Source: a virus. From it: DNA of 33,512 nucleotides. The position numbers and the translations under genes are program-made. Location of the stretch: IMG/VR virus record IMGVR_UViG_3300027976_000003; one strand, given 5' to 3'. This document shows positions 6,615 to 13,846 of this stretch, piece after piece (the stretch's first letter is position 1; each line of letters starts with the position of its first letter). The notes below the pieces were generated by a model. The model worked only from the letters and a program-made list of their open reading frames with translations, was not told the DNA's origin and searched no databases.

Positions 6615-6785
6615 ATGTTGTTTATGATACTTTTTATATTAGGAATGATTGCTGTAATATCCCTTTTCGGATGGGTATTATTGCGATACGGCTTTTTTGC
6701 CGGAGTGATTTTTATTGTACTACTGCTTGGCGGCCCGAGTTTTGTTGCAGTTGGGAGCCACATCGCGAAATACGGACATATTTAA
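6615..6785 (+). CDS. Small 56-aa two-TM membrane protein, below the ORF-track cutoff; holin or exclusion candidate
   Basis: My translation is MLFMILFILGMIAVISLFGWVLLRYGFFAGVIFIVLLLGGPSFVAVGSHIAKYGHI. SD aaagga sits 4 nt upstream of the ATG at 6615. There are two hydrophobic stretches separated by RYG. Its stop overlaps the stop of the convergent gene (TTAA at 6782-6785). Confidence 0.45.
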   Translation: MLFMILFILGMIAVISLFGWVLLRYGFFAGVIFIVLLLGGPSFVAVGSHIAKYGHI

Positions 6786-7147
6786 GCTGAACGTGCATTA
6801 TTTGTTCGTGTAAGCAATTCCACGAACATTGTGCATACCAATTCCGTACTTCCTACCTCACTACGCACAGCATATAGGAATATCCAATTTCCGTAACTGT
6901 CAACTATAAACGCAACGCTGCGGGGTATGTAGGATTCGCTATATTCAAGCGAAATTCTACGCCTAATAGTGTCCGTGGGTAGTAGTGTACTTATGAACGG
7001 AACTACTGTAGTCTTTATAAGCATTTTACCCGCAAACACCTTATCGATATGTGCTGCAACAAGTGATTCATCTATACGTGCGATTAGGTCAAGTTGCTTA
7101 TCTGCAAGTTCTTGCTGTACGTAGTTTGTTTTCTTAAATGGCCACAT
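6782..7147 (-). CDS. Hypothetical protein, last gene of the leftward operon
   Basis: 121-aa ORF. ATG at 7147 with ggag upstream. Co-oriented with four upstream genes. Confidence 0.6.
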   Translation of the reverse strand: MWPFKKTNYVQQELADKQLDLIARIDESLVAAHIDKVFAGKMLIKTTVVPFISTLLPTDTIRRRISLEYSESYIPRSVAFIVDSYGNWIFLYAVRSEVGSTELVCTMFVELLTRTNNARSA

Positions 7148-7177
7148 TATACTTTACTCCAATTGATTTCGTTCATT

Positions 7178-7516
7178 TTATTCTCCTAATGTGTTTTGAT
7201 AATCAGCCCAACGCATGATTACCAACGGCTCTTTATATGGAGCCTTTACTATCAGTATCGGTGTCTTACCTTTACTGTTCTTTACGCATTGTTCCATATC
7301 TTTATAAGCATGACCATAACTTCGTTGGTTTTTACATTCCACTGAAATGTTTAGCATGGCTTCCAGTTCAGCACTGAATTGCAAATCTTCCCCATGAGCA
7401 CTAGATTTCGGCACTATGACACAATCTGCTGGCAACTCAGAAAACACTTCGCGAATTTTATCTGCCACCCATTCGCATAACTGTGTTCCTTTGGCTCTCT
7501 TAGCGGACGGAGTCAT
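7178..7516 (-). CDS. Small PD-(D/E)XK-fold nuclease (VRR-NUC/Hjc-like; possible junction resolvase)
   Basis: 112 aa. The stretch AHGEDLQF...NISVECK has the G-x-D ... h-h-E-x-K arrangement, with an upstream acidic residue in LCEWVADKI. An ATGA start/stop overlap links it to the upstream gene. Confidence 0.5.
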   Translation of the reverse strand: MTPSAKRAKGTQLCEWVADKIREVFSELPADCVIVPKSSAHGEDLQFSAELEAMLNISVECKNQRSYGHAYKDMEQCVKNSKGKTPILIVKAPYKEPLVIMRWADYQNTLGE

Positions 7517-7806
7517 CCCAACTCCAATCCCAACAATGCGCGAATAGCTAAGTATTCATTCCAAGCATTGCGAAGTGATTCGTGTTGTTGCATTTCATAG
7601 CGTGTAGGACCAGATAATACTTCGCTCATCAGTTTCTGTTCATACTTTCTTTTAAGTATGCGCAGTTCGTTTTCTTTTTGTAGAATAGATGACTGTAAGT
7701 CTTGTGCTGATGGTGAGTGGGTGTATGGAACATTCGTTATTCCTTGGTGAATGTATTTGTCTAAGTCTAAGTCCATTCCCTTCCTATAGTCGTCTCTGGT
7801 GGCCAT
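7513..7806 (-). CDS. Hypothetical protein
   Basis: 97-aa ORF with a strong SD (aggag) 6 nt upstream of the ATG at 7806. Confidence 0.6.
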   Translation of the reverse strand: MATRDDYRKGMDLDLDKYIHQGITNVPYTHSPSAQDLQSSILQKENELRILKRKYEQKLMSEVLSGPTRYEMQQHESLRNAWNEYLAIRALLGLELG

Positions 7807-7807
7807 A

Positions 7808-8230
7808 TTATTCTCCTAAGTAAAAATATTCGGTATTACTACGCTTTAGTTTATGACAAATTGCTGCACTTGTCACGCCTTCAAATTTTGCAGCGGCGGT
7901 AACACTCAGAAACTCTCCGTGCGGGGTCTTAACTGGTCGGATGATTTTCTTATATGTGTATGAAAAGTATTCACGGCAATCAAATGGCTGTTTGCCCCTA
8001 TTGCTTTCTATGTCTCGTAGTTTTCCAATTTCGCGTTGATGTGCTCCTTTTTGGCATCTATGTTTTATCAAAGAGGGTGTAATGCCGTGTGCTGTAGCAG
8101 CATCTTCGTACCCCAAAAACTCACCTAATGCAGTTTTCACACGAACTTTATACGGGTTTGAGTTTCTTGCTTGTAGCTTCGATTCATCACTTACCACGAA
8201 TCCTGGTTTTCTTCCTGGTTTCTTATTCAT
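7808..8230 (-). CDS. DNA-binding protein with an N-terminal basic/AT-hook-like tract and two NUMOD1-like HTH modules
   Basis: KKPGRKPG at the N-terminus. TALGEFLGYEDAATAHGITPSLIKHRC and TPHGEFLSVTAAAKFEGVTSAAICHKLK repeat the G-x-F-x-S-x-x-x-AA-x-x-x-G-h-(T/S)-x-x-x-I pattern. This pattern is typical of the DNA-binding modules of GIY-YIG/HNH homing endonucleases, but no nuclease domain is present. Confidence 0.55.
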   Translation of the reverse strand: MNKKPGRKPGFVVSDESKLQARNSNPYKVRVKTALGEFLGYEDAATAHGITPSLIKHRCQKGAHQREIGKLRDIESNRGKQPFDCREYFSYTYKKIIRPVKTPHGEFLSVTAAAKFEGVTSAAICHKLKRSNTEYFYLGE

Positions 8231-8543
8231 TTATGTCCTCGTAATAAAAATTATGTTTCGTCCAATGACCGCATCTATGTGCTATCGCCGCTGGGGTAAC
8301 GCCGTAAAACTCTGCCGCAGCGATAATGGATTCATATATTCCGTCTGGTGTGATTACTCTGCATCGTTTCAGTGGAGTGTCCCGCATTGGTTTGACGTGA
8401 GTGCATCCAGGTGGTAATACTTTATTACCTTTATATTTGCGAATGTCTATAGTGCGTGTGTTGATTTGCATAGTGGTGTATTCTGTTATCACAGATTCTT
8501 TCTTTTGTGTGTACGCTGCAATTGCTTCTTCGAAGTTATCCAT
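8223..8543 (-). CDS. DNA-binding protein with one NUMOD1-like HTH module (paralogue of 7808..8230); first leftward gene
   Basis: TPDGIYESIIAAAEFYGVTPAAIAHRC carries the same motif. An 8-nt overlap (ATGAATAA) links it to the next gene. It starts 5 nt from the divergent promoter. Confidence 0.55.
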   Translation of the reverse strand: MDNFEEAIAAYTQKKESVITEYTTMQINTRTIDIRKYKGNKVLPPGCTHVKPMRDTPLKRCRVITPDGIYESIIAAAEFYGVTPAAIAHRCGHWTKHNFYYEDINE

Positions 8544-8547
8544 TTAC

Positions 8548-8576
8548 TTGACCTTTCGTGTAGTTATCTGTATTAT
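8548..8576 (+). promoter_or_regulatory. Sigma70-type rightward promoter TTGACC-17 nt-TATTAT
   Basis: TTGACC at 8548-8553, a 17-nt spacer, and TATTAT at 8571-8576. It lies in the divergent intergenic region about 60 nt upstream of the ATG at 8640. Confidence 0.5.
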
Positions 8577-8639
8577 TTATCAATAGTGGTCAATCGTGAT
8601 AAATAATAATAATAATAACATAATAAGTTGGGAGAAAAT

Positions 8640-8816
8640 ATGGACCTAAGTAAAGAACAATATCTGGTGGATGTGCTAAAAAATAAATGCAGGACTGTGG
8701 CTAAAGTTACATTGGACGGTGTAGAGATGAAAACACAGTCGTATGAGGCATGGGTTGGTAGAAAGAAAATGATGGATTACTTGTACACGACTTTGGGTAA
8801 AAAGTTCAGAAAGTAA
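8640..8816 (+). CDS. Small 58-aa protein, first rightward gene
   Basis: The listed ORF 8628..8816 starts at a TTG. The ATG at 8640 follows SD gggag by 5 nt. The protein is basic and of unknown function. Confidence 0.5.
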   Translation: MDLSKEQYLVDVLKNKCRTVAKVTLDGVEMKTQSYEAWVGRKKMMDYLYTTLGKKFRK

Positions 8817-8825
8817 CTCGGTAAG

Positions 8826-8855
8826 TTGACTGATTTGACTGAGTAGTGTATAAAT
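8826..8855 (+). promoter_or_regulatory. Sigma70-type promoter TTGACT-17 nt-TATAAA, with TG just upstream (TGTATAAAT)
   Basis: TTGACT at 8826-8831, a 17-nt spacer, and TATAAA at 8849-8854. It sits immediately after the stop of the small ORF and faces the structured leader and the primase gene. Confidence 0.5.
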
Positions 8856-8863
8856 ATGCATGT

Positions 8864-8950
8864 AGCAGTTCTTGCTATATGTAGTCTGAGTTAAAATCTG
8901 AAACCCCGAATCGGCCTTTATTGGCCTTTTCGGCTGAAGCAGTTCTTGCT
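8864..8950. promoter_or_regulatory. Twin 13-nt palindromes AGCAGTTCTTGCT, 74 bp apart, flanking a hairpin (operator or RNA-hairpin candidates)
   Basis: Identical 13-mers at 8864-8876 and 8938-8950. Flanks extend the pairing differently: tgTAGCA..TGCTAta versus GAAGCA..TGCTTC. The hairpin ccgaa-tc-ggcc-tttatt-ggcc-tt-ttcgg lies at 8906-8933. Confidence 0.4.
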
Positions 8951-8953
8951 TCG

Positions 8954-9069
8954 TTTCTTGTCGCAAAATCTCACTTTCGATCGCCCCTTCACTGGGGCTT
9001 TCGATTGAGTAAAGGAGTGAGATCCCGAACTTCCGCCCATAGCAAGTATGGTGCCCCTGCGACAAGAAA
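8954..9069 (+). ncRNA. Candidate structured RNA (or ssDNA origin structure): multi-stem element closed by a 12-bp helix
   Basis: P1 pairs tttcttgtcgca (8954-8965) with tgcgacaagaaa (9058-9069). P2 pairs atctcact (8968-8975) with agtgagat (9016-9023). P3 pairs tcga..gcccc (8977-8987) with ggggc..tcga (8994-9004) around loop ttcact. There is no credible + strand ORF. It lies downstream of the promoter at 8826. Confidence 0.35.
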
Positions 9070-9172
9070 AAGATAATAACTTCTGGGGTTTAATTTATAT
9101 CCATAACTCTGGAGTTAAAAATGCCATCCATAAGTCACTGTGCAGAAGTCGTGCTTATTACGAGGAGGAACA

Positions 9173-10114
9173 ATGTTAATAAGTTTTCATCCAAAAATAA
9201 TCGGTAAGCCCATATTCGATGATAATAGGATCGCTACTATAAATGGACAGCGAGTCTATCTAAGTCACGGATGGGTAACAGGTGAGTTCGAATTCGACGA
9301 AGTGTTTGAGGTGCTCACTACACTCGGTCACGCCATGACCTGCGCACTAAAAACAGATCACCGGATCGAAACAGACTTTGTGTCACAACAATTAGCATTG
9401 GTCGATATTGATAAAGGCATGTCAATAAAGCAGTTAGAAACGCACGAGTTTTATCAAAAATACGGAAGTGGATATTATACAACACCGTCGCATACAGATA
9501 CAGATAACAGATTCAGGTTAGTGTATATGTTGGAATCACCTATCACAGTTGCAGAAGACATGAGAGTATTATACGAAAGTCTACTCGCAGTGCATGGTGC
9601 GGCCGACATTAGTTGTAAAGATCCGGCAAGGTTGTTCTTTGGAACTATCAACGCTGTTAAGAAAGAAACAACAGGCAGAGTGTTAACATCAGAGGGTGTT
9701 GTAGAGGCATATATTGCACGGGGTGCTATACTTGCGGCGAGGCCTGCACCGCAAGTATATAGCGGGTCATCTACACCGCTAAATTCGAAAGAAATTGGCG
9801 AAATTTTAGACGAACTGCACAAGTATTACCCTTCGCTGCCTTACGATGTGCGACGCGATGTCACATGGGCAGTGCTTAGTGAGTGCAGCGAAGCAGATAC
9901 AATCCAACTCATGAGGAGCAGATGGGATGATAGCAGGTTGGCCGGGAAATATGAAGTGATGATAGCAGGTCGTACAAGGGATGACATATCCATCGGCACG
10001 CTATACTTTATGATTCGACAACACAATCCGAGGTATAGAAAACAAGCGAAGTATAAAGACCAAAACTTTATGGACAATTTAATGAATAAACTAAAAAGGA
10101 AACAAAATGAGTAA
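9173..10114 (+). CDS. Archaeo-eukaryotic primase (AEP) superfamily primase-polymerase
   Basis: The listed ORF starts at a GTG (9140). The ATG at 9173 follows a strong SD gaggagg. Motifs are LALVDIDKG (DxD), YYTTPSHTD..RFRLVY (sxH plus strand) and ADISCKDPARLFFG, as in VirE-N/BT4734-like AEPs. Confidence 0.7.
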   Translation: MLISFHPKIIGKPIFDDNRIATINGQRVYLSHGWVTGEFEFDEVFEVLTTLGHAMTCALKTDHRIETDFVSQQLALVDIDKGMSIKQLETHEFYQKYGSGYYTTPSHTDTDNRFRLVYMLESPITVAEDMRVLYESLLAVHGAADISCKDPARLFFGTINAVKKETTGRVLTSEGVVEAYIARGAILAARPAPQVYSGSSTPLNSKEIGEILDELHKYYPSLPYDVRRDVTWAVLSECSEADTIQLMRSRWDDSRLAGKYEVMIAGRTRDDISIGTLYFMIRQHNPRYRKQAKYKDQNFMDNLMNKLKRKQNE

Positions 10115-10475
10115 ATTATTAGAAATAGCAAGAGCAATGAAAGCAAACAATTCCACTAAAGGTGAACTATACATACTTAGGATACCAGCACCAGAGAAGG
10201 AACATGCTAAAGCATCTGGTGCTAAGTGGAACAACGAGGAAAAACACTTCGAGGTGAGAACAGAAGACATTGATAATCACCCACTGAAACACTTACAAGT
10301 CACAAACCCTGAATGGATACAACTGAAAGGCAATATCCCGTTCGACTACAAAAAGGATTTTAAAGATGCGGGTGTGGTGTCAGATAAGATTGATGACAAG
10401 TGGTGTGACTTCGTATTGGCAACCGAGAAGTATAGTGACGTTATCAACGCATTATATGAGGCGGAGTTGATATGA
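10107..10475 (+). CDS. Small protein with two tandem ~45-aa modules of the type often fused to plasmid/phage primases and topoisomerases (recalled as DUF5710-like)
   Basis: YILRIPAPEKEHAKASGAKWNNEEKHFEV and IPFDYKKDFKDAGVVSDKIDDKWCDFV both fit h-P-F/A-x-x-K-x-x-A-K-x-x-G-A-x-W-x-x-x-x-K-x-W/F. The gene overlaps the primase stop. Confidence 0.45.
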   Translation: MSKLLEIARAMKANNSTKGELYILRIPAPEKEHAKASGAKWNNEEKHFEVRTEDIDNHPLKHLQVTNPEWIQLKGNIPFDYKKDFKDAGVVSDKIDDKWCDFVLATEKYSDVINALYEAELI

Positions 10476-10948
10476 GTGCGTTTATATGGAAGGGAGGTTA
10501 CCCACACAAAGGGTGGATTAACACAAATATAGAAGACTTAGGTGAGGGTAATTATTTCAAATGTGAGATGTGCAGCAATCCTGTAGTTCGGTACAAGCAC
10601 ACAATGGAACACCTGGAAATAGGAGCAATAAGCACAGGGTGTGACTGTGCTGAAAAAATGTCAGAGGAGTATAAAGGTGTCGGTAGTGCCAGAGAAGAAG
10701 AACTTAAAAAGTTAGCAACAAGCAGGAAGAACTTTTATGTAAACGGATGGCACGAATCTGAACAAAATACATTTAGAAAGTTAGGCAAAGATAGGCTATC
10801 AATAACAGAAGTTAACAACAGTTACTACTGGTTAGTTGAAAAGGACACAGACGAGTACTCAAATGTGTTTAATAACACACCGTGCAGCACAGAATTAGAA
10901 TCAAAACAGAAGATATGGGATATGTATAAAGATGAAGGATGGAAATGA
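10472..10948 (+). CDS. Cys-rich (zinc-ribbon-like) protein of the replication module
   Basis: CEMCSNPVVRYKHTMEH...GCDCAEKM. An ATGA overlap links it to the upstream gene. Confidence 0.5.
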   Translation: MSAFIWKGGYPHKGWINTNIEDLGEGNYFKCEMCSNPVVRYKHTMEHLEIGAISTGCDCAEKMSEEYKGVGSAREEELKKLATSRKNFYVNGWHESEQNTFRKLGKDRLSITEVNNSYYWLVEKDTDEYSNVFNNTPCSTELESKQKIWDMYKDEGWK

Positions 10949-12366
10949 TAGATAAAACGACAAAGGCATTATTGCCACAACTAATAATAGATACAGTAGA
11001 TGCACTGGGGAAACTAACAAACGCACCGGACGAGATGACCATCCCCATAGTATTGTCTATCGCCAACTTTGCAACACAAGGATTAAATGACGCCAACCCT
11101 CTTATGTGGAAACGATGTCCTGTGTCTGAATACTTTATGATACTTGTGCCAAGTGGTGGGATGAAATCGGGTGTTACCGACTACACACTCGACGGCATTA
11201 AGGATTTCGAGAAGCAACAAAAGTTGGCAACGAAACAAGATATAACAGCATACCTGGTAGATAAGAAAAAATATCTTAAAGATGTCGAAGCAGTAGTAAA
11301 AGACCCAACATTACCTTATCCAACATTACCTGAACGCCCACGCGGACATAAAGTGCGTATCGAGAAAGGAACAACAAATGGTATCATCAATACGCTCAGA
11401 GGTGTGCCGTTCTCATGTTTGCTTAATACAGACGCAGCGGAGTTCTTTAACAGTCACAGTTTCCAAGATAGTAATAAGTCTATGGAAATGATTAGTATGT
11501 TGTCGAAACTGTGGTCGGGGGAAAAAATCGAACGCAATACAGGTATAGAGGATGATAATGTGGAACTTACCGATAGACGGTTTAATATGTTGATGTTATT
11601 ACAACAACAAATGGCTGGGTTTCTCGTAGATAACAGATATAAGGATCAAGGTTTCACAAACCGCATTCTTATCACTCAAGCAGAACTATTTAAAAAACCA
11701 TATGTAACATCCGCCTCCCTAAGTAGTATTAAACACACCCAGGCAGCACTTGATCCATTCCATGATAAGATACTACATTTGTTGCAAAAGGTTATAAAAA
11801 CCCAAATAAAACAACATGCAGCAGCGGCTCAATATAATCAAGATGTTGAGCCAAATCAATTGATACTCGATTTAATAGAGTTCGATAAGAAAGACGGTGC
11901 AGAACAAGTTATGATAGACTTCTATAATAAAATGGGCGCTGCAATGCATGATCCATGTAACATAGAGTATCAAAACTTTATATCCAGGTTGTACGAACAC
12001 GCAGTTAGGTTGGCTGCTACATTTGCTATATTCGACGAACATAAAACCATTAATATTAAATATGCAGAGGCAGGATGTAAATTAGCAATGTGGTTTTTAA
12101 AACAGAGGCAGGATTTACAAATTGATGGGAAAGAAGTTGTGGATCCAATTGTGGAGCATGCAGAAAAAATACGTAAGTTGTGGTGGAAGATGGAGGCGGA
12201 TTACAAAGCCTCCGGCGATGAAAAAGACAAACCTACTAAGAGTAAGATAACGCAGAGATCGCATCGTGGATGGAGAGCATTATCAAGAGATAATAAGAAA
12301 CGAGTATGGGCGGAAATAGAAGGTAGGGAAGAAGACAGAATAGAAGAGGAGAACGAAAATGAATAG
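10939..12366 (+). CDS. Helicase-like P-loop protein (DUF3987/YfjI-like candidate) partnering the AEP primase
   Basis: 475 aa. Degenerate Walker A VPSGGMKSG and Walker-B-like CLLNTDAAEF. Its size and position directly downstream of a primase-polymerase are typical. An alternative start is the ATG at 10945. Confidence 0.45.
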   Translation: MEMIDKTTKALLPQLIIDTVDALGKLTNAPDEMTIPIVLSIANFATQGLNDANPLMWKRCPVSEYFMILVPSGGMKSGVTDYTLDGIKDFEKQQKLATKQDITAYLVDKKKYLKDVEAVVKDPTLPYPTLPERPRGHKVRIEKGTTNGIINTLRGVPFSCLLNTDAAEFFNSHSFQDSNKSMEMISMLSKLWSGEKIERNTGIEDDNVELTDRRFNMLMLLQQQMAGFLVDNRYKDQGFTNRILITQAELFKKPYVTSASLSSIKHTQAALDPFHDKILHLLQKVIKTQIKQHAAAAQYNQDVEPNQLILDLIEFDKKDGAEQVMIDFYNKMGAAMHDPCNIEYQNFISRLYEHAVRLAATFAIFDEHKTINIKYAEAGCKLAMWFLKQRQDLQIDGKEVVDPIVEHAEKIRKLWWKMEADYKASGDEKDKPTKSKITQRSHRGWRALSRDNKKRVWAEIEGREEDRIEEENENE

Positions 12367-12526
12367 ATCACAAGCACAAAGTTATAGAAGATTTTTGGAA
12401 AATACTATCAACGATGAGAATTTATCGTCTCAACAACGAGTAGATATTTTAAGGTATTATGTTGAAATTCACGGGTTAGTATTCGACAAAAAGAAAACTC
12501 TAACAAGTGCAACTTTTAAAAAGTAG
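12359..12526 (+). CDS. Possible 55-aa ORF (below the track cutoff) overlapping the helicase stop
   Basis: My translation is MNRSQAQSYRRFLENTINDENLSSQQRVDILRYYVEIHGLVFDKKKTLTSATFKK. The ATG sits inside ...aaaATGaatag, overlapping the upstream stop. The ORF ends inside the first iteron/inverted repeat. Confidence 0.3.
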   Translation: MNRSQAQSYRRFLENTINDENLSSQQRVDILRYYVEIHGLVFDKKKTLTSATFKK

Positions 12527-12730
12527 CATGCAAAAGTTGCACGCATAGTAGCACGGGTAAAAATCACGAAAAACCCAATAAAAACAACATTCTTAGAGGT
12601 GATTTGAGTGAAAAGTAGCAAAGTAGCATGGCATATGCTAATACGAAGTTTTGTTATGTATTCTTATATATATATGTATGCGTGTACGCGTGGTGTGCTA
12701 CCCGTGCTAATCGTGCTATTTCGTGCTATT
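12507..12730. promoter_or_regulatory. Opposed iteron arrays flanking a (TA)n tract; candidate replication origin or master operator region
   Basis: AGTAGCA at 12522, 12547, 12614 and 12622. The complement-oriented GTGCTA at 12695, 12704, 12713 and 12723, spaced 9, 9 and 10 nt, plus ATGCTA at 12635. tatatatatat at 12665-12675. An 11-bp inverted repeat gtgcaactttt/aaaagttgcac at 12507-12517 and 12532-12542. Confidence 0.5.
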
Positions 12731-12847
12731 TTTTAATTATGCAACATTTAGCGATAGCAACAACAACAGAAAATCACCAGCACTTCTAGTATGATTAATT
12801 GGCAGTAAATATTGGCAGTAGTTAAACAAACAACTAAAGGAATCAAA

Positions 12848-13045
12848 ATGAAAGAATTTAAAGAAATGTTAGATCACTTGCGAACATTGTCATATAAAGA
12901 ACAAGCCCGAATGAAACTGATAGAGGACAAGTTCGATGAATACTCGGATGCATATATTATCGAGAATGGATGGACAGTAGAAGACTTTCGAACCCAATTG
13001 AATATTTTTGATGGAGATGATTCGCATATAGAACAAAAGCAGTAA
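12848..13045 (+). CDS. Small acidic hypothetical protein
   Basis: The listed ORF starts at a TTG (12812). The ATG at 12848 follows SD aaagga. Confidence 0.5.
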   Translation: MKEFKEMLDHLRTLSYKEQARMKLIEDKFDEYSDAYIIENGWTVEDFRTQLNIFDGDDSHIEQKQ

Positions 13046-13188
13046 GCAGTTGAGTATCTATAACACGCAAGCAGGTGTCAAATACGTCAAAAAACGTGAA
13101 AAATCCAATGACAACTATGCTTAGCATTGCTTGGCTACATGAGAGGTAAATAATAGCGTAAATAAGTCATAATAATCCTTTAGATTCT

Positions 13189-13237
13189 GCCAACACTTCG
13201 GCTCCCTTTACCTTAGGGACTGTTGTGTTGGCTTTTT
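13189..13237 (+). terminator. Stem-loop followed by a T5 run (intrinsic terminator candidate)
   Basis: gccaacac (13189-13196) pairs with gtgttggc (13225-13232), with an inner tccct/aggga stem, followed by ttttt. Confidence 0.45.
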
Positions 13238-13330
13238 AACGACTACAATTTTTGCAATGAGATAAATAAGCGTGTTGTAAACTAATCATAGAGCAACAAA
13301 CTAACCTGTAAACCAGTAGCAGGAAGATAC

Positions 13331-13846
13331 ATGTCAGAAGAAGAAAAACCAAAGAAGAAATATTCTCCAGCGGGCGGACGCAAGGCAGATACATTCATGC
13401 CAGTAGAAACAACTGGCAACTTCAAACGCGACAATCCATTTCATATGAGCATTAACGAACTTATTGCTTGGAAAGAAACTGGTCAAAAGCCTAAGCTGAT
13501 TATGCGATCAGAAGAAGTATTCAACTTAGCGAAAGCTGGTATCAGCATGAAAAACATTGCTGGAGTATATTCTACTACTGAAATGACTATATTAGATAAC
13601 CCTGCGTTCTTGAGCGCTTTTAATGATGGTCGTGCGGAATGTGGGTCCAGAGTGCGTGCAATGATATATCAACATGCTGAAGCGGGCAATTTAAATGCCG
13701 CTATTCACTTAGATAAGTTGTTATCAGGTGAAATTCAACGCCAAGAGATTAAACTGGAGTTATCTACACGTCCAGCCGGAAATATAAGTGATGCTGAACT
13801 AATAGAAAGTATCGAGTTCGACGATGGCGAAGATAACCTTAACTAA
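13331..13846 (+). CDS. terS: Terminase small subunit (positional call)
   Basis: 171-aa ORF with a basic N-terminus. It lies immediately upstream of the large terminase and overlaps it. Confidence 0.5.
   Translation: MSEEEKPKKKYSPAGGRKADTFMPVETTGNFKRDNPFHMSINELIAWKETGQKPKLIMRSEEVFNLAKAGISMKNIAGVYSTTEMTILDNPAFLSAFNDGRAECGSRVRAMIYQHAEAGNLNAAIHLDKLLSGEIQRQEIKLELSTRPAGNISDAELIESIEFDDGEDNLN

Follow-up and report, generated by a model that had tools for sequence, protein, structure and literature searches.

Staphylococcal pathogenicity islands (SaPIs) replicate from an origin (ori) that is located directly downstream of rep and includes 6–12 penta- or hexanucleotide repeats, half of them on each side of an AT-rich center, with at least two repeats per side and the two sides pointing in opposite directions (Ubeda et al. 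2007/2012, as summarized in PMC9371898 and PMC7581432). The repeats are recognized by the winged helix of Rep, an MCM-like self-loading helicase that is thought to load as two hexamers (PMC9371898, PMC7581432). Here we describe an element of similar architecture in the IMG/VR virus record IMGVR_UViG_3300027976_000003, whose complete stretch of 33,512 nucleotides is referred to as the window. The element occupies positions 12507–12760 (core 12611–12728), downstream of a gene for a DUF3987 helicase, and is probably a phage replication origin of the "self-loading initiator-helicase" type. A previous examination of the nucleotide sequence, made without database searches (the sequence-only reading), had proposed that iterons plus an AT-rich unwinding element form an origin at this location, and the comparison of related loci strongly supported the proposal.

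Other described systems share some of these features. The Cch2 helicase of the staphylococcal cassette chromosome SCCmec binds 5-nt direct repeats just downstream of its own gene, at a putative origin that is also a preferred start of priming, and is paired with an unconventional primase (PMC7581432). The window likewise has short repeats directly 3′ of a helicase gene, but the Cch2 site consists of three direct repeats, with no opposed arrays around an AT-rich center, and Cch2 is a protein of the D5_N/Primase_Cterm type. The same Pfam family as that of the window helicase, DUF3987, includes AgaPH, a PriCT-DUF3987 protein from mobile elements associated with prokaryotic Argonautes, which is a proven helicase, has a small C-terminal domain, and partners an archaeo-eukaryotic primase (AEP) primase-polymerase (PMC11724360). 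AgaPH differs in its N-terminal PriCT domain and in that no origin was defined for it; its polarity is 5′→3′ as reported, whereas that of the SaPI Reps is 3′→5′. At the lambda ori and in iteron plasmids, initiator-binding repeats also lie beside an AT-rich unwinding element, as they do in the window. However, the lambda repeats are direct, ~19 bp long, and located inside the O-like initiator gene, and the initiator is not a helicase but needs a loader (P) and the host DnaB. The core repeats of the window are instead 5–8 nt long, intergenic, and arranged in opposed arrays, and no O- or P-like genes were found in the window with Pfam or PHROG. In the satellite phage P4 a single protein, the alpha primase-helicase-initiator, reads direct and inverted octamer repeats through its C-terminal DNA-binding domain and needs two separated loci, ori and crr; in the window, the idea of a second locus (at 8864) found no support.

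The repeat element

The repeats listed in the sequence-only reading were all found at the proposed positions: AGTAGCA at 12522, 12547, 12614, and 12622, GTGCTA at 12695, 12704, 12713, and 12723 (preceded by C in three of the four copies), the tatatatatat tract between them, and an 11-bp inverted repeat (12507–12517 and 12532–12542) at the left edge. This inverted repeat is made of one-mismatch copies of the repeat itself, TGCAACTTTT (12508–12517, reverse) and AAAAGTTGCA (12532–12541), as compared with AAAAGTAGCA. In total, the arrays contain eight exact copies with the TAGCA core and three to four degenerate ones. Among the eight listed copies, all those in forward orientation are to the left and all those in reverse orientation to the right of the (TA)n tract. 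The 5-mer TAGCA is the only sequence common to both arms, which read aGTAGCA on the left and TAGCACg on the right. A further TGCTA, at 12636, belongs to the conserved center box of the family and is not a repeat copy. The right-hand spacing was as proposed, but its interpretation as one helical turn did not hold as a conserved feature, since the left pair is 8 bp apart and the relatives mostly have 8–9 bp (range 7–11). The coordinates of all features are shown in Table 1.

Table 1. Features of the repeat element and its surroundings in the window.
Feature	Position	Strand	Description
DUF3987/MCM-like AAA+ helicase, proposed initiator	10939..12366	+	475 aa; Pfam DUF3987 E = 3.9e-28; PHROG "DNA helicase"
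55-aa open reading frame (ORF), putative	12359..12526	+	overlaps the helicase stop; own stop inside the first AGTAGCA copy
Distal (possibly auxiliary) repeat cluster	12507..12553	.	TGCAACTTTT (reverse, degenerate), AAAAGTAGCA, AAAAGTTGCA (degenerate), atAGTAGCA; the 11-bp inverted repeat is part of it
Inner left repeat pair	12611..12628	+	AAAAGTAGCA / AAGTAGCA, 8 bp apart; relatives have an 8–9 bp pair at the same position
Conserved oriented AT-rich center	12629..12694	+	left box CATATGCTAATACGAAGTTT (~12632–12651), (TA)n 12665–12675, right box TATGTATGCGTGTACGCGTGG; proposed unwinding/loading region
Right repeat array	12695..12728	-	four (C)GTGCTA (minus strand: TAGCAC(G)), at intervals of 9, 9, and 10
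Trailing degenerate copies	12740..12759	.	TGCAACATTT (reverse); TAGCA at 12755
65-aa ORF	12848..13045	+	between the repeat element and the terminator
Strong intrinsic terminator, predicted	13189..13237	+	stem GCCAACAC...GTGTTGGC followed by U5

The sequence-only reading had suggested measuring the enrichment of the half-site, and ten TAGCA/TGCTA words were counted in 12507–12760, against an expectation of 0.94 based on the remainder of the window (Poisson P = 6e-8; ~8e-6 when corrected for the number of windows). Any other 254-bp stretch of the window contains at most five. The 30-bp segment that starts at 12649, inside the center, is the second least stable duplex of the 33.5 kb as calculated from nearest-neighbor energies. 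A cruciform or hairpin formed by the core as single-stranded DNA was considered and rejected because its folding was no better than that of shuffled sequences (z = -0.96), which suggests that selection acts on the words and not on base pairing. As single-stranded DNA, the distal cluster has a hairpin of -9.9 kcal/mol (z = -2.3). An Rfam search of 8500–13400 identified no family and only one sub-threshold chance match. The core is 245 bp and the distal cluster 141 bp away from the helicase stop codon.

Conservation of the element beside the helicase gene

The loci of relatives were collected by exact look-up and by scanning genome, viral, and metagenome collections with profiles. The helicase homologues numbered 79, at 30–55% identity, and 35 relatives had sufficient downstream sequence for judging the layout, which consists of two to four forward repeats with a period of ~8–9 bp, a center, and two to four copies of the same repeats reversed. 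The layout was present in all but two unclear cases (L134 and L153 were the least clear). In the first 12 relatives it was found within 400 bp after the helicase stop in every case (12/12), with an AT-rich center of ~65–110 bp, and at all loci the element was 15–250 bp after the stop. The relatives too have additional copies of the repeat in the interval that separates the core from the helicase stop.

While the layout was constant, the repeat word differed between lineages: ATAGAG in the closest relative (L118, 55% identity), AAATGTG in L119, TAAGCA in L120, L124, L125, L131, and L135, GTTGTAA in L122, TTAGCTA in L123 (a phage-like region in a Variovorax fucosicus genome), GACCAGC in L126, GTAGAC in L127, L129, L145, and L151, TTAAGAG in L136 and L157, and GTAGCA in the window, L128, L141, and L150. 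Many of these words are variants of GTAGnn or TAAGCA; therefore, the sequence space available to the repeats may be constrained.

An exact-word test was defined as at least two forward copies 7–11 bp apart, 30–140 bp with at least 60% AT, and at least two reverse copies. Ten of 13 loci passed within 400 bp of the helicase stop with words of k = 6, and 12 of 13 with k = 5, each locus passing one of the two. The background windows of the same loci passed in 0/412 (k = 6) and 2/412 (k = 5) cases, and shuffles of the same regions in 0/2600 and 3/2600, respectively. When metagenome loci were added, 22 passed automatically; the others with enough sequence had the same layout when judged by eye, with copies that were degenerate or differently spaced.

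The center is also conserved. Alignment of the loci revealed a common orientation, with a left box close to ACATATAAACGAGATT, an AT or (TA)n run, and a right box close to TTTTTATGTGTG. A hidden Markov model (HMM) of the centers of 24 relatives, with the window left out, matched 12633–12689 (+) of the window with E = 4.3e-4, and the runner-up had E = 2. This match of a model made exclusively from relatives supports homology, and the element of the window is therefore a somewhat divergent homologue of a family-wide element.

The genes located downstream of the element vary. Terminase genes follow at 0.6–2.4 kb in the window and in L118, L122, and L128; in L120 there is a virion structural gene; L119 has genes that resemble those of homing endonucleases and glycosyltransferases, not packaging genes; and the genes in L123 are convergent, on the minus strand. 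As judged from these loci, the element travels with the helicase gene and not with the packaging genes.

Many of the putative origins have a short GC clamp that brackets the AT-rich center, GGGG(T) being immediately interior to the left repeats and (A)CCCC to the right ones (L120 5098–5167, L124, L125, L147, L136, and L157); the window has no such clamp. L123 (NZ_JASZYU010000004.1, 416986–423395), the only match of the helicase clade to a named organism, is phage-like, has 40–53% GC, and encodes a T7-type endonuclease I, a 339-aa protein in the primase position, and the helicase; it also includes a textbook copy of the origin with TTAGCTAG repeats. Variovorax genomes are far more GC-rich than this region, which is a weak lead to the host or possibly a contaminating contig.

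Other searches were less informative. Five near-identical metagenome contigs (L113–L117) were 100% identical over the element and thus carried no covariation information; the phage is present in the samples ERZ27247429, ERZ27247425, JGI 3300007523 and 3300007516, and SRR5208886. Among 50,697 phage records, used to look for cultured phages, blastn of 12300–13100 and tblastn of the helicase found no match. A search of viral contigs for related loci with the helicase alone found nothing, and a scan of viral contigs for CGTGCTANNCGTGCTA produced more than 112 unrelated chance matches (L001–L112) and was uninformative.

The helicase and the SaPI replication system

The AlphaFold2 model of the window helicase (predicted local distance difference test, pLDDT, 88.9) was compared to the PDB using Foldseek. 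The top 50 matches were all MCM or CMG subunits (E down to 2e-5, template modeling (TM) score ~0.38), and SaPI Rep was not one of these 50. The C-terminal ~80 aa were the most divergent segment of the helicase in every comparison; with L118 they share 33% identity, against 53–67% elsewhere. In the family representative, L122, the C-terminal domain has the canonical winged helix pattern and predicted fold, H1-S1-H2-H3-S2-wing-S3 (pLDDT 85.9), and its Foldseek matches were the DNA-binding domains of PadR, MarR, ROK, forkhead, and RTP proteins (TM 0.5–0.67). Pfam searches with the isolated C-terminal domains detected nothing significant, with just a faint trace of a Mnd1 helix-turn-helix (HTH) at E = 0.11. 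The acidic tails of the window and L118 proteins are EGREEDRIEEENENE / AKREEERLSEGGENK (window 12100–12366 and L118 6141–6407). The 55-aa ORF was considered as a detached wing or recognition helix of the helicase winged helix and was rejected (hhalign probability 0.5%).

As in SaPIs, the proposed origin of the window is directly downstream of the helicase gene, which in turn comes after a primase gene, and the number of repeats, the AT-rich center, and the occurrence of two or more opposed repeats per side are those of a SaPI ori. The SaPI repeat word is element-specific, and the words at the DUF3987 loci differ by lineage, with repeat distance tracking helicase distance (r = 0.55, 27 loci), although some loci with divergent C-terminal domains have the same word. 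In addition, the MCM-like AAA+ fold is found in the model of the window helicase and the winged helix in the family representative. Nonetheless, DUF3987 is another helicase family, and the helicase of the window has no wing and no sequence-detectable similarity to any solved chain. The window is a complete phage with structural genes while SaPIs are satellites, and the 55-aa ORF and the distal repeat cluster lie in the interval from the helicase stop to the core. Moreover, the center of the DUF3987 loci is conserved and oriented across lineages with different repeats, and is often bracketed by GGGG/CCCC. The element is best understood as working like a SaPI origin in another helicase family, and homology of the helicase to SaPI Rep was not supported.

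We consider that the element is probably an origin because its repeats are enriched and strictly segregated by orientation, because its position and architecture are conserved beside the helicase gene, and because the repeat word changes by lineage while the layout persists. The homology of the center, which has the same orientation in all loci, and the low stability of its duplex, one 30-bp segment of which ranks second lowest in the window, lead to the same conclusion. So do the match of the helicase model to MCM, the winged helix of the family C-terminal domain, the proven helicase activity of AgaPH, the association of the element with the helicase and not with packaging genes, and an architecture equal to that of the experimentally defined SaPI ori. 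If the element is an origin, we modestly favor the helicase as the protein that reads the repeats. The sequence-only reading had named the HTH proteins, a 58-aa protein, and the primase as candidate binders; the evidence points to the adjacent helicase, which was not in that list.

Genes and other features around the element

The gene content of the window, as determined from the ORF list, Pfam, and PHROG, is that of a small tailed phage, with tail-fibre genes at both ends. A short leftward block of small genes (6782 to 8543) precedes a rightward promoter and leader (~8826–9140). The replication module includes, in this order, a primase-like gene (9140–10114), whose product has a weak match to the PHROG "DNA primase", the genes for a 122-aa DUF5710 protein and a 158-aa protein, and the helicase gene. 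The module is followed by a mainly non-coding stretch, the tentatively assigned small terminase subunit (TerS) gene at 13331, the large subunit (TerL) gene at 13824, and then the structural genes. Small DUF5710-like proteins (motif L.VPY..K...K.LGAKWD...K.W) are encoded beside primase and helicase genes in the window (10107–10475) and in L128 (951–1187).

The 55-aa ORF was called only in the near-identical contigs, is absent from L118, and has no Pfam or PHROG match; no family match was found for the 65-aa ORF. The terminator is in the 285 bp that separate the TerS gene from the 65-aa ORF. Its RNA fold has -26.1 kcal/mol (z = -5.98), and 0/200 shuffles were equally stable. In L118 the counterpart has the same arrangement as in the window, an ORF plus a hairpin and T-run at 6878–6910. 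The stem of this L118 hairpin contains CTCTATA/TATAGAG, a near-copy of the L118 repeat word. The predicted terminator would close the replication unit ahead of the TerS and TerL genes. Since the 65-aa ORF and the terminator come before TerS, the element would be inside the replication transcription unit and not at the head of the late operon; a control region for that operon is more likely in 13238–13330 than in the repeat element.

Just 5′ of the Shine-Dalgarno sequence and ATG of the 65-aa ORF (12848), the segment 12798–12820 contains a perfect 10-bp direct repeat, two copies of ATTGGCAGTA that are 13 bp apart. The second copy is the sole difference among the otherwise identical contigs within the stretch common to all, and L113 has ATTGGCTGAG there. 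This direct repeat may serve as a small operator or as an element of a promoter; its spacing disagrees with the GG-N10-GC of sigma-54 promoters.

The sequence-only reading had also suggested that a DNA-binding protein common to both may connect the element to a palindrome near 8864. The palindrome exists (tgTAGCAgttctTGCTAta at 8861–8879, with TAGCAgttctTGCTA present), but the link was not supported. The arrangement TAGCA-N(0-12)-TGCTA has three occurrences compared to 0.9 expected, a number reached by 12/100 shuffles. Twin 13-mers, AGCAGTTCTTGCT, occur at 8864 and 8938 (0.08 expected); the palindrome is one of them, and their common half-site is AGCA, not TAGCA. Each twin (8864–8876 and 8938–8950) forms a 4–6 bp hairpin with the loop GUUCU, the two being 74 nt apart in the leader 5′ of the primase-like gene, an arrangement that fits a structured leader RNA. 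At the corresponding position L118 has a hairpin that differs in sequence, and ATAGAG, the repeat word of L118, does not occur in its promoter or leader. The link lacks support in view of the shuffle result, the AGCA half-site of the twins, and the lack of the L118 repeat in the L118 leader.

Evaluation of alternative explanations

Several observations weigh against the element being an origin of the SaPI type read by its helicase. The conserved and oriented center is not a described feature of SaPI origins. The GC skew of the window rises monotonically with no inflection at the element, although an inflection is not expected in a genome transcribed almost wholly on one strand. A phmmer search with the helicase against all PDB chains found no helicase match at E <= 1, a result that extends to SaPI Rep if its entries are among those chains. 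The window and L118 helicases end after the putative recognition helix in an acidic tail and lack the wing strands that the other family members have. In a partial Mantel test with the 27 loci, the C-terminal domain was inseparable from the core (partial r 0.16 vs 0.18). Finally, the repeat word of the window is common to L128, L141, and L150, whose C-terminal domains are only 14–23% identical to that of the window.

The missing wing, the identical words with divergent C-terminal domains, and the Mantel result are also what would be expected if the element were an origin whose repeats are read by another protein of the replication module, which then recruits the helicase. The candidates would be the DUF5710 protein (122 aa), the 158-aa protein, the primase-like protein, and the product of the 55-aa ORF. 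A DUF5710-like small protein is encoded in both the window and L128, which have the same repeat word, and the two proteins are 28% identical over 71 aa. However, the helicase is the only protein whose gene was shown to have an invariant position relative to the element at every locus. The primases differ, with Prim-Pol in L119 and L120 and unrelated proteins of 324 and 337 aa in the window and L128, and the C-terminal domain of the family is a genuine winged helix. In addition, in the analogues studied by experiment it is SaPI Rep and Cch2 themselves that bind the repeats (PMC9371898, PMC7581432). A separate reader is therefore unlikely, even if it deserves consideration.

The location of the element between the replication and structural modules, in a genome with no gene on the other strand than + from 8628 onward, could suggest a transcriptional control region, with operator arrays or a promoter for the downstream genes. 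Short repeated sites around an AT-rich stretch can be operators, and there are TATAAA-like words in the conserved center. Nevertheless, a scan for sigma-70 and terminator consensus sequences found sites no more commonly than in shuffles and scored no + strand promoter in 12500–12850. The 65-aa ORF and the strong terminator intervene before the terminase genes, the repeats co-vary with the helicase lineage, and the distance to the helicase stop is maintained while the downstream genes change in kind and strand. These results make a control region very unlikely and speak against the suggestion, in the sequence-only reading, that operators in the element gate the late operon: the element follows the helicase gene regardless of what is downstream.

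A packaging site, with pac or cos-type repeats bound by TerS 5′ of the terminase genes, would also agree with the location upstream of TerS and TerL. In many siphoviruses the pac or cos sites are upstream of the terminase genes, and terminase binding sites such as the lambda cosB R sites or the SPP1 pacL/pacR boxes are short repeats. However, 600 bp and a terminator separate the element from the TerS gene in the window, L119 and L120 have no terminase gene within 3.5 kb downstream, and the TerL gene of L122 is at 2.2 kb. The distance to the terminase genes thus ranges from 0.6 kb to more than 3.5 kb with no fixed association with the small terminase, while the element is always beside the helicase stop. 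Besides, TerL is of the Terminase_6N type and the portal of L118 is P22-type, a combination that fits headful packaging rather than cos ends. A role in packaging is highly improbable. The abundance of GTAGCA, with 27 + strand copies in the window (33 on both strands vs 24.7 expected), could be taken as a sign that the element is a functionless chance cluster of a common pentamer. This explanation is hardly credible in view of the corrected P value and the segregation of orientations, the recurrence of the architecture in ~35 loci compared to 0–2 of 412 background windows, and the homology supported by the relatives-only HMM.

Proposed mechanism

The following model applies to the element as an origin. 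The MCM-like DUF3987 helicase encoded by the gene directly upstream would bind the TAGCA repeats, most likely through its C-terminal HTH/winged-helix-type domain. Since the arms point in opposite directions, two rings would assemble in opposite orientation, to the left and to the right of the AT-rich center. The center would then melt, the primase-like protein would prime, and a host polymerase would extend the primers. The distal cluster could provide auxiliary binding sites. In this model we infer the binding, the melting, the loading of a double ring, and the identity of the repeat-reading protein from the comparisons described above.

The center is conserved and oriented although the helicases of the different lineages are only ~30% identical and the primases are unrelated. 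A tentative and more general hypothesis, which we regard as possible but doubtful, is that, in a large clade of uncultured phages, the DUF3987 helicases act as self-loading initiator-helicases, with origins that combine lineage-specific arms and a shared, oriented center of ~60 bp (ACATATAAACGAGATT ... TTTTTATGTGTG, often clamped by GGGG/CCCC) read by conserved replication machinery. The center might be recognized, for instance, as a track for loading or melting by the helicase core, or it might be a fixed start of priming. Such an origin would carry a two-layer code, with a variable address in the repeat arms and a constant launch pad in the center, that has not been described for SaPI or plasmid origins.

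Implications

Since a full-text literature search found no paper with both "DUF3987" and "iterons", it appears that no origin has been described so far for the DUF3987 family. The probable origin and the candidate initiator presented here are concrete and testable for a clade of uncultured phages of ~33–35 kb, for which no cultured representative was found among the phage records searched. They would extend to complete phages, and to the DUF3987 family, the staphylococcal satellite design of a self-loading helicase plus a downstream repeat origin. The finding is of value chiefly for the data set across the family and for the conserved center. The ~35 natural origin variants, with differing words on a common scaffold, are a data set for the evolution of initiator specificity and could supply compatible minimal replicons.

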